A DNA stretch of 34,714 nucleotides from a virus (Duplodnaviria; Heunggongvirae; Uroviricota; Caudoviricetes): IMG/VR virus record IMGVR_UViG_2740892487_000001; one strand, 5' to 3'. Position numbers and translations under genes: made by a program. This document shows, one piece after another, positions 26,430 through 31,363 of this stretch. The stretch's first letter is position 1. Every line of letters starts with the position of its first letter. The notes under the pieces were generated by a model. The model was not told the origin of the DNA and did not search any database. It saw only the letters and a list, made by a program, of their open reading frames with translations.

Positions 26430-27153
26430 TAAGCAGCCTCTCCTGTTACTTTCAGCATTCCGTTATCGAGCAGCTTTCTGGTCAGCCACTGTTGGCCACG
26501 TCCGGTGATTTTTGTAGTGAACGATATCTGTATTCCGTGATTTGTGTTGACCGCTGTTTCTTTCACTGTGAAATAGCCGCGATCCATATATTCCTGCATT
26601 GGCACATTGCGCCGGGAACCTGAAGCAATAAGGATTTTGTGATCGCGCATCCACGCAAACAGTTTGTTTGGACCAATACCAACAACCTTTGCAAAGTTTC
26701 CAATCAAAATTCCGCTGGCCTCGCCAACGCGATCGGCAAACTCAACTTTAGGTGCGGCAATTGCGAGCTGGTTTTCCAGTTGCATTTTCTGCTCAGCAAG
26801 ATCAGCAGCAAGGCGCAACGCTTCTGGTAGCGTTTTTGGGATATTAACCGCAGTTTCTTCAAGCTCTCGCCAACGGTCAACAAGACGAGCGGTGAATTCC
26901 GGCGACAACTGAGCGACGACAATAATGCTGTCTCGCTTACCTTGTTCGCCCTCAAAAACGTAAGCCTCTACGCCACGAAGTAATCCTAAGTTATTGATTT
27001 TTTTTCGAAAACCACCATTGGGGGATTTCGGATCACACCTCGAGCCGCCAGTCGTTCAATAGATTGTTTCACCTTGTCATGACGACTTCCCACCAACTCA
27101 GCGATTTCAATGCTTGTCATTTTGATGGCATTGCCATTTATTAACTCACTCAT
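26429..27153 (-). CDS. Rha-family regulatory / antirepressor-like protein; frame broken at T8 (26998-27005)
   Basis: N-terminal MSELINGNAIKMTSIEIAELVGSRHDKVKQSIERLAARGVI (Rha-like); the C-terminal part continues in ORF 26429-26908 and is restored by a 1-nt length change in the run. Confidence 0.6.
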
Positions 27154-27322
27154 CGTCTTCTTCCTCGTACATTGAGCTATTCGGATCGCTCATCAGTTCT
27201 GCACAGCAGTGCTCACACATGTGAACTTCCAGCACATGCAGCTTCTGACCGCAGTTAGCGCACGTTAAAGCTCGCTCGACGCTTTCTTTCTGGTATTGAA
27301 GGGATTGGGATGGGCTAAGCAT
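27146..27322 (-). CDS. ninF: NinF-like protein
   Basis: [58 protein letters not shown] matches lambda NinF as recalled; below the track's 60-aa cutoff. Confidence 0.85.
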   Translation of the reverse strand: MLSPSQSLQYQKESVERALTCANCGQKLHVLEVHMCEHCCAELMSDPNSSMYEEEDDE

Positions 27323-27671
27323 TATTGGCGTCCTGCATCATGAGAAAGACAATCATGGCGGCACGGAGTGGATTGTCATATGCGACACCAACATTCGGTC
27401 CGGCATCATCAAACAAGTCCCTTGCGTTGTCTGTGGCGCACGGCATTGAGGGATTGTTTAAAATTATGCTGATGTTGTTTTCAGTGATAATCGGCCATGC
27501 GTCTGCTGGGTTATTGCAGTAGTCGTACCATCGATAATTACCATTTGCTTCATTGCCAACAGACCGTCCATCTGCGTTGTGCGGATAACCTAATGGTTTT
27601 GCCCCAACTATCGCTTTAAATACTCGCTTGTTAATTTCAAAATCACTTAACTGTGAATAATCCATTGTCAT
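27315..27671 (-). CDS. NinX-like hypothetical protein
   Basis: ATG at 27671 overlaps the ninE stop (ATGA); 118 aa; no family recognised with confidence. Confidence 0.55.
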
Positions 27672-27844
27672 TTCCTCGCACGATGTCTTAGCCACCGGAT
27701 ATCCCACAGGTGAGCAGTGTAATTGAATGTTTTCACATCAGATTCTTTTGGGATTGGCTTGGGTTTATTTCTGGAGCGTTTGGTTGGAAGGTATTTGCAG
27801 TTTTCGCAGATGATGTCGGTGAAACTTCGTCGCTGTCGTCTCAT
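27668..27844 (-). CDS. ninE: NinE-like protein
   Basis: [58 protein letters not shown] matches lambda NinE as recalled; ATGA overlap with ninB. Confidence 0.85.
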
Positions 27845-28251
27845 TCGTACCTCCTGTCGGTAAATCTGACACCCTGACCAATAGCCCATGCTGTCGTGTA
27901 CTCAATCAGGCTTGCCATGCGCTTCACGCTCATCTGTGCGCTGCTTTCGCGAATGTTGACGTATTCGCCTTCAAGCCCGGGCAAAGCATCAGCTTCCTGC
28001 TTTGTCGCCACTGCATGACCGCTAATCAACAAAATCTTCCATTGTTCTGGTTTTAACCATTTGCCGCACCATTGAACCTGACGAGCGATATCCGCCAGCA
28101 TCGCGTGAAATTTTGCGTTCTGGTCAAGGTTGCGCTTGTAGTCAGTAATGCGGATGGTGACTGGCTTGTCTTTATCGAGTGGTGTTGCGAGGATGGCGTT
28201 GATTGCGGCTTGCTGTTGTTGCTTACTCCTGAGGAAAATTGTCTGTTTCAT
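27841..28251 (-). CDS. ninB: NinB recombination protein
   Basis: [66 protein letters not shown]... resembles lambda NinB. Confidence 0.8.
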
Positions 28252-28259
28252 GGAATTCC

Positions 28260-28472
28260 TCAGTATGCGTAAAGGCTGTATCCATTTTTATTTGGCCTGG
28301 TGCCATAGCCATATAGGCTCCAGCCATCCTGTTTTCTCTCACCAAAAATATGCTTGCGGTATTCTTCCTGCTGGCGTCTCCATAGTTCCATCATGTCTGG
28401 CTGGTTCTTTTCTCGCATTTTTCGAATCTGCTCAAGGATGAACTCTATTTGCTGCTGATTTGTCATGCTCAC
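28260..28472 (-). CDS. Hypothetical protein (70 aa)
   Basis: ORF co-oriented with the nin operon. Confidence 0.4.
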   Translation of the reverse strand: MSMTNQQQIEFILEQIRKMREKNQPDMMELWRRQQEEYRKHIFGERKQDGWSLYGYGTRPNKNGYSLYAY

Positions 28473-28476
28473 TCCT

Positions 28477-28692
28477 TCACTTTAAATCCAGGTTCCGGAT
28501 AATTCTGTCACACTGAAAATCAGTATCGATTTTAACCAACCGGCGAAGAACGCGGTCACGCGGATAGCTACGTGGCTTAGGGGCGTTTTTCTGTCTCTCG
28601 CCAGTCGGAAGTCTGGAAGCAGACCAGTACCGCTTTGCACGACCAATGTTCTCCTGAAAGTCGGCGCGGACAAGCTCAACTATCGTACTCAT
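28477..28692 (-). CDS. Hypothetical basic protein (71 aa)
   Basis: ORF whose ATG overlaps the stop of the upstream small ORF (ATGA); an alternative frame, 28482-28679, is also open. Confidence 0.4.
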   Translation of the reverse strand: MSTIVELVRADFQENIGRAKRYWSASRLPTGERQKNAPKPRSYPRDRVLRRLVKIDTDFQCDRIIRNLDLK

Positions 28693-28781
28693 TTCTTAAA
28701 GCCTCCAATTACCCTCCCCCAAATAAAAAGGCCTGCGATTACCAGCAGGCCTGTTATTAGCTCAGTGATGTAGATGGTCAT
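28689..28781 (-). CDS. Small hydrophobic peptide (30 aa), putative single-pass membrane protein
   Basis: MTIYITELITGLLVIAGLFIWGRVIGGFKK; start and stop each overlap the neighbouring genes as ATGA. Not in the ORF track because it is under 60 aa. Confidence 0.45.
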   Translation of the reverse strand: MTIYITELITGLLVIAGLFIWGRVIGGFKK

Positions 28782-29047
28782 TGCTTCATCTCCCTTTCCA
28801 TTTCATCAATGTCAACGTCATCAGGAAGATGGGAGCAATACGCCGCTATACCATGATGATTTATCTCATACCCTTTGAACGTTACCATCTGGCGCGTAAT
28901 CTCAACTTCGTTCAGGAATCCGTCATCGCATAACTGCCTGGCTATTTTCGATTTGGTCTGGATTATTGGTAGTGCCTGTTCTTTCAAAGCGCATGATATT
29001 TGTGCATCCCATGCCTTTTCGAGAATGGCTAATTGTTTTTTATTCAT
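28778..29047 (-). CDS. Hypothetical protein (89 aa) downstream of the helicase
   Basis: ORF coupled to the helicase stop (overlapping TGATG). Confidence 0.5.
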   Translation of the reverse strand: MNKKQLAILEKAWDAQISCALKEQALPIIQTKSKIARQLCDDGFLNEVEITRQMVTFKGYEINHHGIAAYCSHLPDDVDIDEMEREMKQ

Positions 29048-30483
29048 CAGAATCCTCCTTTCTTCTTGGACTGCGGTTCCTCGCGTTCACGGCGGCGCAT
29101 TTCAGCAGACTGTTGGTCTGTGTCATAAATAGCGCCATTTGCCTGAATGCAGTACACCGTGCCGGTATTGCCATGACGATTGAGACGAAGGATTAGTTCA
29201 GTTTCACCAGGTGGAACACTGTCATCAAAAGCGCCTTCACGATGGATCCCGACCCAATAATCGCAATCCTGTTCAATCTGCCCTGTATCTCGTGAGTCAC
29301 TTGGTAATGGGCGTTTATTGGTTCTGCTTTCCAGTGCGCGGTTAAGCTGCGTCAGAAGCACAACAACGCAATCAAGCTCTTTGGCAAGGTTCTTCAGTCC
29401 TTTGGTGATCATGCCGTAAGCAAGGTCGTTGCGATCGGCCTTCTCAGCGGTCATTAGTGTCAGGTAATCGACCAGAATCATGCCAACACATCCTTTTTCT
29501 CGCTTGATTCGACGGCTTTCGCTGACGATTTGAGCCAGAGATAATCCCGGCGTGTCGTCGATGTAAAGCAGGTCGATTTCACTCAAGCGATTGGCTGTTT
29601 CGATCGCCCTGTTGAAGTCACCATCGTAATCACCCTGATAGCCGTCATCGGCGTCATTTGTCGCCGGAAGGTAAAAAAATATTCGGGTTAACACCAGACT
29701 TCTGCCCTACCAGTTTTTCCAGTATCTGGTCACCTGGCATTTCAAGGCTGAACATCAGAGCTGGCTTTTTCTCATGCACTGCGCAGTTGATTGCCATCTG
29801 GCTGTATAGCGTCGTTTTCCCCATCTTAGGGCGAGCGCCAATGACAAACAGAGAGCCTTTCACCAGCCTTTCGGTGACAGCATCCTGTCCAGCGATGGGA
29901 TCCCTGTGCTCATTACTCGTTGTTCGCCTGACGGGTCAAATCGCTTCTCAAGGTCGCTAACCCAGTCTTCCATGACCTCACCAAATGAGCGAAGGCCGCG
30001 ACGCGATCCGGTTTTTGCATGGTCTGTCAGTTGCGTGAAAATCGCCTGAATAGCTTCGTACTTCTGCGTTGCAGTCATTCCGTTGCGGGAATAGAGCAAT
30101 TCCGTCGCTTCAGTCATGCGGTTGATGGCGTAGCGTTCCATTGCGGTTTCACGAACCTGCATTGCATAGGCAACGATGTTTGCTGCGCTTGGCGTGTTCT
30201 TTGCGATCTCAGCGATATAAGCAAAACCGCCAACAGACGCCGTTAACGATTTGCGCTCCAGTTCATCGAAAAGCGTCAGCCCATCTACTGGCTTTTGCTC
30301 CCGGTGCATTCTGGTTATTTCTTCGAAAAGGATTTTGTGTGGTCGGCTGTAAAATGAATCGGGCTTCAGCATCGCCAGAACTTTCTGGACGCGCTCACTG
30401 CTGTCATCATCCAGAAGCAATCCACCAATCACCGCCTGCTCAGCCTCGATGCTATGGGGCGGCGCATAAAAATTATCGGTCAT
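29047..30483 (-). CDS. DnaB-family replicative helicase; frame broken near 29860-29870 and at A7 (29673-29679)
   Basis: N-terminal PPHSIEAEQAVIGGLLL; Walker A GARPKMGKTT; downstream IDDTPGLS...ILVDYLTLM. The three ORFs 29860-30498, 29654-29863 and 29047-29694 are collinear pieces. Confidence 0.85.
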
Positions 30484-31363
30484 CGTGTTCACCCTCACGA
30501 ACTTTCAGGTAGGTATTATCGTTAAGCAGGAAATCAAATCCCTTTTTGTGCCAGACGGTTCCGCGTTGATGGTTTGGGCGTTCTTCGAACATCCATCGGC
30601 AATTTTCGCCTACGTAGCTCAAATAATTTCTCCAGTCCTGCATCGTGAACCCATGCCCGTCAAGCTGGCGGGTTATCACTCCGGCTTTGCGCCAGAACGT
30701 TCGGATCTGGTTTTTACGCTTGTCATTCAGTGCGCGGATTCTTGGCGCTTCAGGAAGGATTTCGTGGTAAGCATCGACAACATCCTGACAGCTAACGGAA
30801 GGTTTTTTCTTGTCAGACTTTTTGTCTGCTGTGGCACTCTCTAATACGTCAGTATTAGAGATATTATTTATATTATTGTTTATGGACAACCGTTGGACAA
30901 CCGTTGGACAATCTCCGCTGAGAGCCGCGCCATTACTGGTGTTTGCGTTGGACAACCGTTGGACAACCGTTGGACAATTTTTTGCCTGAAAATCGTCATA
31001 TTTAACGATTGTAAACAGGCTAAATTTCTTCCCCATCGAGCAAATATTAAGCATCCCTTTCGACTCAAAAGTCCGTAATAAGCTCCGAACTTTGTTGTCG
31101 GGGATGAATGTTTCTCTGACCAGCGACGGGCGTCCAGTTATCATCTGACCGCGATCAACAGTTATCGGACCGATATCCGTATTGACGACAGTAGATTCGT
31201 GATTAGCCTTGAGGATTAAGTGAAGCCAAAGATGTACTGCCTGAGAGTCCTTATAGAGCCTGCTGTCCATAAACTGGCGGTGTATAGAGACATACCCCAT
31301 ACTGGATGCCTCCTGATGTTGTACAGGGTTATGCCTGTAATCAGCTAACTTAACGACGCCCAT
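30473..31363 (-). CDS. Replication initiation protein (O-like function; the origin iterons lie inside the gene)
   Basis: Position between cII and the helicase; the iteron arrays encode a repeated CPTVVQRLS segment inside the ORF. Confidence 0.7.
   Translation of the reverse strand: MGVVKLADYRHNPVQHQEASSMGYVSIHRQFMDSRLYKDSQAVHLWLHLILKANHESTVVNTDIGPITVDRGQMITGRPSLVRETFIPDNKVRSLLRTFESKGMLNICSMGKKFSLFTIVKYDDFQAKNCPTVVQRLSNANTSNGAALSGDCPTVVQRLSINNNINNISNTDVLESATADKKSDKKKPSVSCQDVVDAYHEILPEAPRIRALNDKRKNQIRTFWRKAGVITRQLDGHGFTMQDWRNYLSYVGENCRWMFEERPNHQRGTVWHKKGFDFLLNDNTYLKVREGEHDDR
30850..31010. repeat. Replication origin: two arrays of 11-bp iterons (CCGTTGGACAA) flanked by AT-rich DNA
   Basis: TGGACAACCGTTGGACAACCGTTGGACAAT at 30883-30911 and again at about 30947-30978, with AT-rich sequence on both sides. 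Confidence 0.8.

Follow-up and report, generated by a model that had tools for sequence, protein, structure and literature searches.

The short hydrophobic open reading frame that lies between an 89-aa gene and a 71-aa gene in the window (by which we mean the whole stretch of phage DNA analysed, 34,714 nt in length) is very probably, as judged from its sequence, the long-known lambdoid ninA frame carrying the transcription terminator tR2, and not a new gene. Our preferred reading, to which we assign a probability of roughly 0.85, is that the frame belongs to the ninA/tR2 module of the lambdoid early-right (pR) operon, in which an N-sensitive terminator, a recombination joint and a short translated bridge are combined. 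In this reading tR2 would halt pR transcripts unmodified by N before the nin genes and Q are reached, and N-modified polymerase would read through it; both steps have been shown for lambda and are proposed here from sequence identity. The 68-nt module may also serve as a recombination joint where the replication and nin modules meet. The ninA frame would be translated across the terminator, joining the stop of the gene before it to the start of the gene after it within the ATGA-overlapped chain of nin genes, and we infer that such a bridge is the purpose of its translation. Finally, the G-rich stretch after the U-tract leads into the ribosome-binding site of the next gene. The features that bear on this reading are collected in Table 1.

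Table 1. Positions of the ninA/tR2 module and of neighbouring features in the window
Feature	Position	Strand	Remarks
ninA ORF	28689..28781	minus	from the ORF list and the sequence; ATG start, TGA end
Conserved 68-nt module, lambdoid 'boundary sequence' (ORF nt 1-68)	28714..28781	minus	from nucleotide matches in phage records
tR2 hairpin	28729..28752	minus	stem AGGCCTGC / GCAGGCCT, loop TGGTAATC
tR2 U-tract	28721..28728	minus	TTTTATTT on the coding strand, directly after the hairpin
Shine-Dalgarno-like GGGAG for ninA	28790..28794	minus	8 nt upstream of the ATG, within the 3' end of the 89-aa gene
Shine-Dalgarno GGAGG for the 71-aa gene	28702..28706	minus	in the ninA tail, 9 nt before the ATG
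89-aa gene, PHROG 2239, unknown function	28778..29047	minus	between the helicase gene and ninA; both junctions of the ATGA type
71-aa gene, Pfam DUF7301 / PHROG 1785	28477..28692	minus	ATG (28690-28692) overlaps the ninA stop
NinB	27841..28251		after the 71-aa gene

The ninA frame, its neighbours and its annotation

The earlier note, which was made from the DNA sequence, described an unannotated ORF for a hydrophobic peptide, coupled to its neighbours on both sides. We observed that such an ORF does exist, on the minus strand (the note had not stated the strand), and that its 30-aa product, MTIYITELITGLLVIAGLFIWGRVIGGFKK, is the same peptide that had been quoted. A 30-aa ORF is by itself meaningless, because the segment from 26500 to 31000 holds 80 ORFs of at least 20 aa. 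As judged from its open frame in relatives, its presence in 421 phage records and its conserved overlaps, all of which are described below, the ninA ORF is far beyond what chance would be expected to provide. The PHROG 5907 profile matched residues 1-26 of the window NinA with E=5.2e-17, and the peptide fits the NinA N-terminal pattern MTIYITEL(I/V/M)TGLLVIAGLFIWG.

The ATGA overlaps behind the proposed coupling were confirmed on both sides in the minus-strand sequence. At the start of ninA the strand reads ...gagatgaagcaATGAccatc... (in a longer read, ...GAGATGAAGCAATGACC...), and the ATG is overlapped by the TGA of the upstream 89-aa ORF; at the end of ninA it reads ...tttaagaaATGAgtacg... 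(in a longer read, ...TTTAAGAAATGAGT...), and the TGA of ninA shares bases with the start codon of the 71-aa ORF downstream, both overlaps being of the ATGA type.

The window derives from a lambdoid phage or prophage that is closest to mEp234, HK542 and HK106, and its pR operon (cro, O, helicase, nin genes, Q) is located on the minus strand. Its genes are arranged in the order O-like, DnaB-like helicase, ninA, NinB and NinF, as in mEp234, except that NinA directly follows the helicase in mEp234, whereas the 89-aa gene is inserted between them in the window. Because the helicase gene carries two apparent frameshifts, in the region 29650-29900, the window may represent a defective prophage with an operon that has ceased to function.

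The name ninA dates from 1982, being credited to Kroger and Hobom in the reference lists of later papers. The description of the ORF as unannotated holds for some records and not for others: the frame is omitted in the lambda record J02459, in Bas106 and in E. coli genomes annotated by PGAP, but it is annotated as a CDS in P22 (YP_063725.1), HK620, 24B, Lahn1 and mEp234 ('NinA protein'). Gene 45 of Sf6 is annotated as 'similar to phage 21 NinA', and the exact 30-aa CDS is annotated in phage Dewey. The exact 30-aa protein is also found, as a hypothetical protein, on 284 contigs with NCBI accessions (E. coli), and the 26-aa versions from lambda and P22 are named NinA in UniRef/NCBI. Neither Pfam nor NCBIfam holds a family for the NinA peptide, and PHROG 5907 is without known function.

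The terminator tR2 within the frame

The tR2 hairpin has a stem of 8 bp, 6 of which are G-C, and a loop of 8 nt, and with its tail it reads TTTTATTTGG (28752..28721, minus). It is the sole terminator-like site on either strand between positions 27500 and 30000, and together the hairpin and the U-tract fill nucleotides 30-61 of the ORF. By itself the hairpin folds at -15.1 kcal/mol; the fold of the whole ORF is of no unusual stability (z = -0.76), and within it the local hairpin alone matters. Nucleotides 16-68 of the ORF, hairpin and U-tract included, are the same as those of lambda between ren and ninB, and the map position also matches that of lambda tR2, i.e. past the replication genes, ahead of ninB and on the pR strand. 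Three records, those of HK620, Sf6 and Lahn1, label the homologous segment tR2, and in the P22 record it is terminator L2, 'similar to phage lambda'.

When read in the ORF frame, the hairpin and T-run give GGC CTG CTG GTA ATC GCA GGC CTT TTT ATT TGG, which specifies GLLVIAGLFIW. Thus, the whole 'transmembrane' core of the peptide is the tR2 hairpin and U-tract read in frame, a terminator to which the earlier note made no reference. The prediction of a single transmembrane helix stands with regard to hydropathy, in that the peak 19-residue Kyte-Doolittle window of NinA averages 2.04 and falls in the transmembrane range, but the hydrophobic core is what the terminator spells. We regard this as a cautionary case, in which an intrinsic terminator with a GC stem followed by a T-run spells a convincing transmembrane helix when read in frame; therefore, small hydrophobic ORFs in operons should be checked for a hairpin and U-tract first.

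Lambda tR2 terminates in vivo with an efficiency of ~0.9, and it is repressed only if the upstream stop codon is close to the hairpin, the efficiency being ~0.8 at a stop-hairpin distance of 18 bp in a natural-sequence series and maximal above ~30 bp (Li et al. 2016). In the module, the upstream stop is set 25 nt ahead of the hairpin. One possible role of this gap is that of a spacer which insulates the terminator and lets it function in varied contexts.

Variation within the hairpin indicates that the tR2 RNA element is under selection. In HK544-like alleles the first 32 nt are kept and are followed by another GC hairpin with a T-run, GGGGCTATT-TACAC-AGTAGCCC-TTTTTT, and an allele from a relative (L138) reads GGGGCCACT-TACAC-AGTGGCC-TTTTT. 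One compensatory change, T-A to C-G, distinguishes this allele from that of L132; it was read directly from the sequences, since the alternative hairpin alleles are replacements that cannot be aligned as variants. Among variants of the lambda type, 3 of 5 single stem changes are C-to-T opposite G, so that pairing is kept as G-U. The commonest internal change, T38A, is located in the hairpin loop, and its effect on the peptide, seen in several loci, is Leu13 to Gln. In published work on evolved nin deletions of Sf6 the predicted terminator was retained in all lines, and published work also links nin deletions to N-independence.

Conservation and variation of the module

Among lambdoid phages, 421 records contain ORF nucleotides 1-68 at 92-100% nucleotide identity, irrespective of the flanking genes, and most of these matches stop at query nucleotide 68. 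The records include lambda, P22, Sf6, HK620, 933W and many Stx phages. In order, the 68-nt module comprises the upstream TGA, the ninA ATG, the 25-nt spacer, the tR2 hairpin, the U-tract and GGGGGAG. The genes that end just ahead of it are of at least 7 unrelated kinds, among them ren, two helicase types and the 89-aa gene, and at least 10 different gene starts come after it. In lambda the match lies between the ren stop (40570) and the ninB/Nin146 start (40644), and the Sf6 record labels the segment 'bsq6; boundary sequence'. Because the segment is near-identical in phages with differing neighbour genes, we propose that it also acts as a recombination joint; this reading draws on the conservation pattern and on the annotation of the Sf6 record. 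A literature search on 'boundary sequences' together with tR2 found nothing further.

A scan of contigs for the exact terminator gave 21 matches, many of them on contigs of ~48.4 kb or on tiny contigs of low coverage, assigned to Pseudomonas, Shewanella, Bacillales and others. We rejected these matches as evidence on host range, as they look like contamination with lambda DNA.

Variation in the frame and its overlaps was followed in ~150 IMG/VR loci, which were collected by two exact-match scans that used the hairpin and the first 23 nt as their respective anchors, and in annotated phage loci. The ninA frame is open in all hairpin-anchored loci, at lengths of 20-34 aa, and neither the N-terminus, MTIYITEL(I/V/M)T, nor the core varies among these loci. 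The sequence after W21-G-R varies with the downstream gene, and includes GRGKS, GRVNRG, GRGKCG, GRGK, GRG, GGEK, GRVIGGFKK and others. In addition, the tail shifts frame in Bas106 (GRGNWRL) and in L049 (FYLGESKSWLS), is cut by a stop at W21 in two loci, and in L138 is fused in frame to the next gene. The 'basic tail' GGFKK, to which the earlier note had drawn attention, is accordingly not a conserved part of the peptide.

Conservation of the overlaps in relatives had been suggested as a check, and we found that both overlaps are kept. An upstream stop of the form ATGA, TGATG or TAAATG lies 0-3 nt from the ninA ATG in 110 of 113 loci. Downstream, the overlap of the ninA stop with the following start measures 4 nt in 83 loci and 8 nt in 43, which amounts to 126 of the 141 loci with an assignable downstream start.

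Two kinds of allele depart from this arrangement. In some phages ninA is split by an HNH endonuclease gene inserted after ninA nucleotide ~30; three loci (L014, L086 and L114) have this arrangement as it is found in phage 1717, with tR2 located ~695 nt further on, and their hairpin-less allele, of the HK022/1717 type, encodes a hydrophobic 34-mer, MTIYITELIAGLSLLMVLTVYIIKYILYANKKTN. The allele of Klebsiella phage phiKp_30, MTIYITELVTGMLVIAGLLFVCKQNRF, has a stem mismatch (C34A), a weaker T-run and an open, hydrophobic frame of 27 aa.

Probable translation of ninA and comparison with known systems

Comparative evidence and published lambda reporter data indicate that the ninA frame is probably translated, as had been argued previously from its overlaps with the neighbouring genes. 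In the window, the SD:anti-SD duplex for the ninA start has a predicted free energy of -8.9 kcal/mol. An SD-like sequence is present at -18..-4 of the ninA ATG in 7/7 unrelated upstream gene ends, the duplexes in these seven contexts ranging from -5.9 to -11.6 kcal/mol, and only ~9% of control positions in the same loci reach -6; the joint chance of finding all seven is <1e-6, if the contexts are independent. For codons 2-10 in the hairpin-anchored loci, we counted 7 distinct synonymous changes and 5 nonsynonymous ones, all of the latter conservative (I/V, I/M, T/A, T/S), for which the expected synonymous share is 26-30% (P about 0.02-0.04). Across four hairpin alleles, the ninA frame alone is open and the other two frames are closed. 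The overlaps, as noted above, are conserved.

The published experiments concern the lambda counterpart. When placed in a reporter plasmid with the natural sequence upstream of tR2, the lambda NinA initiation site was found to be 'not weak' (Li et al. 2016). In the construct with the NinA start, output of the upstream reporter was halved, an effect that the authors ascribed to non-stop decay of mRNA ended at tR2; mutation of the NinA RBS or AUG restored the output. Translation of ninA cut the efficiency of tR2 by only ~10%; when a terminator was placed late in a coding sequence, it retained ~40% of its efficiency (Li et al. 2016).

These observations bear on two alternatives that concern the peptide itself. 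On one of them the ORF would be a meaningless by-product, i.e. a non-coding terminator and recombination joint whose frame is open by chance and is untranslated. Near-invariance at the nucleotide level, and not at the amino-acid level alone, is in keeping with this view, as is the omission of the ORF by many annotators and by PGAP; moreover, a short segment between two genes often ends near the next start, and in the tail of the window's ninA 2 of the 3 frames have a stop no more than 10 nt from the downstream ATG. Yet SD-like sequences in all of the seven unrelated upstream contexts, a substitution pattern in codons 2-10 that resembles that of coding sequence, a frame that stays open across four hairpin alleles in which the other two are closed, and the experimentally active lambda start site leave a by-product hardly credible. 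The opposite view takes NinA for a functional single-pass membrane peptide (a toxin, a Kil-like inhibitor or a modulator of host membrane proteins, as suggested by the earlier note), with conservation driven mainly by the peptide. The hydropathy value of 2.04 over 19 residues, the evidence for translation and the synonymous bias in codons 2-10 are all compatible with it, and in the four alleles the ninA frame is not only the sole open frame but also the most hydrophobic one. In addition, the hairpin-less allele and that of phiKp_30 retain a hydrophobic core with K or R after it; some of the data, namely these hairpin-less and weakened-hairpin alleles, would fit a function at the peptide level better than a pure 'bridge'. 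Against this, the core corresponds nucleotide for nucleotide to the tR2 hairpin and U-tract, the L13Q change in the middle of the 'helix' in several loci falls in the RNA loop, and the alternative-hairpin alleles drop to Kyte-Doolittle values of 1.3-1.5. The C-terminal tail is also free to shift frame, to be cut at W21 or to be fused to the next gene, the ORF is split by an HNH gene in some phages, and the nin region as a whole is described in published papers as non-essential and deletable. The peptide has no Pfam or NCBIfam family, its PHROG is without known function, and our literature searches on NinA found no paper that assigns it a function and no report of a growth or membrane effect. 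We therefore consider a membrane peptide unlikely, and the toxin or Kil-like role, in particular, is without positive evidence.

Two further alternatives concern the coupling of translation to termination. In a leader-like form of control, translation of ninA, especially by re-initiation at the ATGA behind RNA polymerase, would mask the hairpin, tR2 would be sensitive to translation, and transcripts ended at tR2 would be non-stop mRNAs that are cleared by tmRNA and non-stop decay. The terminator does lie within a probably translated ORF whose stop codon comes after the point of transcript release, the SD sequences and the overlaps have been conserved, and the reporter results described above (the halved output and its restoration by RBS or AUG mutations, and the reduction of a late-placed terminator to ~40%) point in the same direction. 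However, translation of ninA lowered tR2 efficiency by only ~10%, albeit in a construct that did not contain the native ATGA overlap (Li et al. 2016). We also observed no alternative antiterminator helix: when the 3' arm was blocked, the 5' arm formed only a weak 3-bp contact, and ninA is without regulatory codons. A search of positions 27000-30500 against Rfam with a permissive threshold gave a single match, to Trp_leader, at 21.5 bits (E=0.44), far below the gathering threshold of 41, and this match reflects the hairpin and U-run. We thus rejected a classical attenuator, for which neither an alternative antiterminator structure nor a match to a curated leader family was found, and regard leader-like control more generally as very unlikely. 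The dependence of plating on trans-translation is described in the published work as selective for a lambda-immP22 hybrid, yet lambda carries the same module; a link of ninA to this tmRNA dependence is a low-probability idea. In a related proposal, translation of ninA would be a selected feature beyond the terminator, such that the ribosome re-initiates at the ATGA and trails polymerase into tR2, termination is set by transcription-translation coupling, and the tR2-ended, non-stop mRNAs pass to tmRNA and non-stop decay; in a variant, the peptide would be membrane-active as well, and the segment dual-coded for terminator and protein. This we judge to be decidedly unlikely. If it were true, the mRNA of the early replication genes would gain stability only after the onset of N antitermination.

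The reading that we prefer, the ninA/tR2 module as terminator, joint and translated bridge, makes the element a joint between modules and the N-dependent checkpoint of early transcription in lambdoid phages that is familiar from textbooks. The module is already known, and nothing in it is new biologically. A ribosome-binding site for this frame of 20-34 codons is nonetheless retained at the ends of all seven unrelated upstream genes.

Type I toxins of the Hok/TisB type and lambda Kil are similar to NinA in size and have one hydrophobic segment. On this comparison, which is made from general knowledge, NinA differs from them in showing no sequence or family match, and in that its tail is not conserved. 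The trpL and pyrBI leaders resemble ninA in that a short ORF, probably translated in the case of ninA, is tied to an intrinsic terminator and the position of the ribosome can affect termination. They differ in that ninA has neither an antiterminator structure nor regulatory codons, and in that its terminator lies within the ORF and not after it.

Closer counterparts are found among the lambdoid phages. The 32-aa product gp48 of HK544 (in its record, similar to HK97 gp56) shares with the window its position, the first 32 nt and an in-frame GC hairpin with a T-run, but the hairpin has a different sequence, GGGGCTATT..AGTAGCCC with loop TACAC, and the peptide is less hydrophobic (Kyte-Doolittle 1.5). 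In P22, HK620, Sf6, 24B and mEp234, the ninA module starts at the stop of a helicase gene and overlaps the next gene, and the records of this group give it a CDS as well as a terminator feature. P22 ninA differs from that of the window by five changes in nucleotides 1-25, four of them synonymous and the fifth I9V, and tails and neighbouring genes differ in this group. A further counterpart is lambda tR2/ninA (40567-40647). The neighbours are ren and ninB in lambda, as compared with the PHROG 2239 89-aa gene and the DUF7301 gene in the window, and the tail is GRGKS (26 aa) in place of GRVIGGFKK (30 aa). Nucleotides 1-68 of the ORF, however, differ at one synonymous position, C15T, and the hairpin, the U-tract, the ATGA start overlap and the position in the pR operon are all shared.

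Insertions and additional reading frames at ninA

In some lambdoid phages, ninA is interrupted after approximately nucleotide 30 by a gene for an HNH endonuclease. An AT-rich stretch precedes the inserted gene, and the tR2 terminator hairpin begins 3 nt past the HNH stop codon. The arrangement has the appearance of a homing-type insertion, targeted at the sequence that is conserved most strongly across the family. Many phages also carry a further small hydrophobic ORF immediately to the 3' side of ninA, the GTG start codon of which lies 5 nt ahead of the ninA stop; example peptides begin VAEFMLVAFKCVGVGWILLTFFIVL and VADWQIPIIILAGASLVAGFILLKK. This ORF is annotated as gene 46 in Sf6 and is absent from the RefSeq annotation of HK620.

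Our scan of genome contigs also found the exact lambda tR2 sequence in contigs that were either ~48.4 kb long or very short and of low coverage, from assemblies labelled Pseudomonas, Shewanella, Oceanobacillus, Neobacillus, Bradyrhizobium, Nocardioides and others. These occurrences almost certainly represent contaminating lambda DNA.

Positions of the features described in the text
Feature	Locus	Coordinates	Strand
HNH gene inside ninA	L014	6333-7050
HNH gene inside ninA	L086, L114
HNH gene inside ninA	Phage 1717 (L162), NC_011357	17369-18019
Small hydrophobic ORF after ninA	HK620 (L007)	about 777-990
Small hydrophobic ORF after ninA	Sf6 (L006)	777-1103
Exact lambda tR2	L164, L167, L176, L177, L181 and other genome-contig loci
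Predicted pairing at ninA start	Window	28782-28850	- (RNA)
89-aa gene (PHROG 2239)	Window	28778-29047	-
Helicase region, three ORFs	Window	29047-30498	-
1-nt insertion in helicase	Window	near 29678
1-nt deletion in helicase	Window	near 29866

Predicted RNA pairing at the ninA start

When the region upstream of ninA is folded in silico, the predicted structure is one in which the Shine-Dalgarno/AUG region of ninA (GGGAGAUGAAGCAAUG) pairs with CUCCCAUCUUCC, which is located ~40 nt upstream within the 89-aa gene. Such pairing, if formed, could restrict independent initiation at ninA and favor coupled re-initiation.

The helicase and 89-aa genes

Three ORFs occupy the place of a single DnaB-like replicative helicase gene in the window. 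Relative to the mEp234 helicase, to which it is 97.8% identical, this helicase sequence has a 1-nt deletion (AAAGGTCTGG to AAAGGCTGG), and one of its T-runs is longer by 1 nt (T6 to T7); because of these 2 changes the Walker-A segment is out of frame. Either the prophage is defective or the splitting of the gene is due to errors in sequencing.

The 89-aa gene fills exactly the space from the stop codon of the helicase to ninA. Its junctions at the two ends are TGATGA/ATGA, and it looks like a gene cassette put in at an ATGA joint. In mEp234, by contrast, NinA directly adjoins the helicase.
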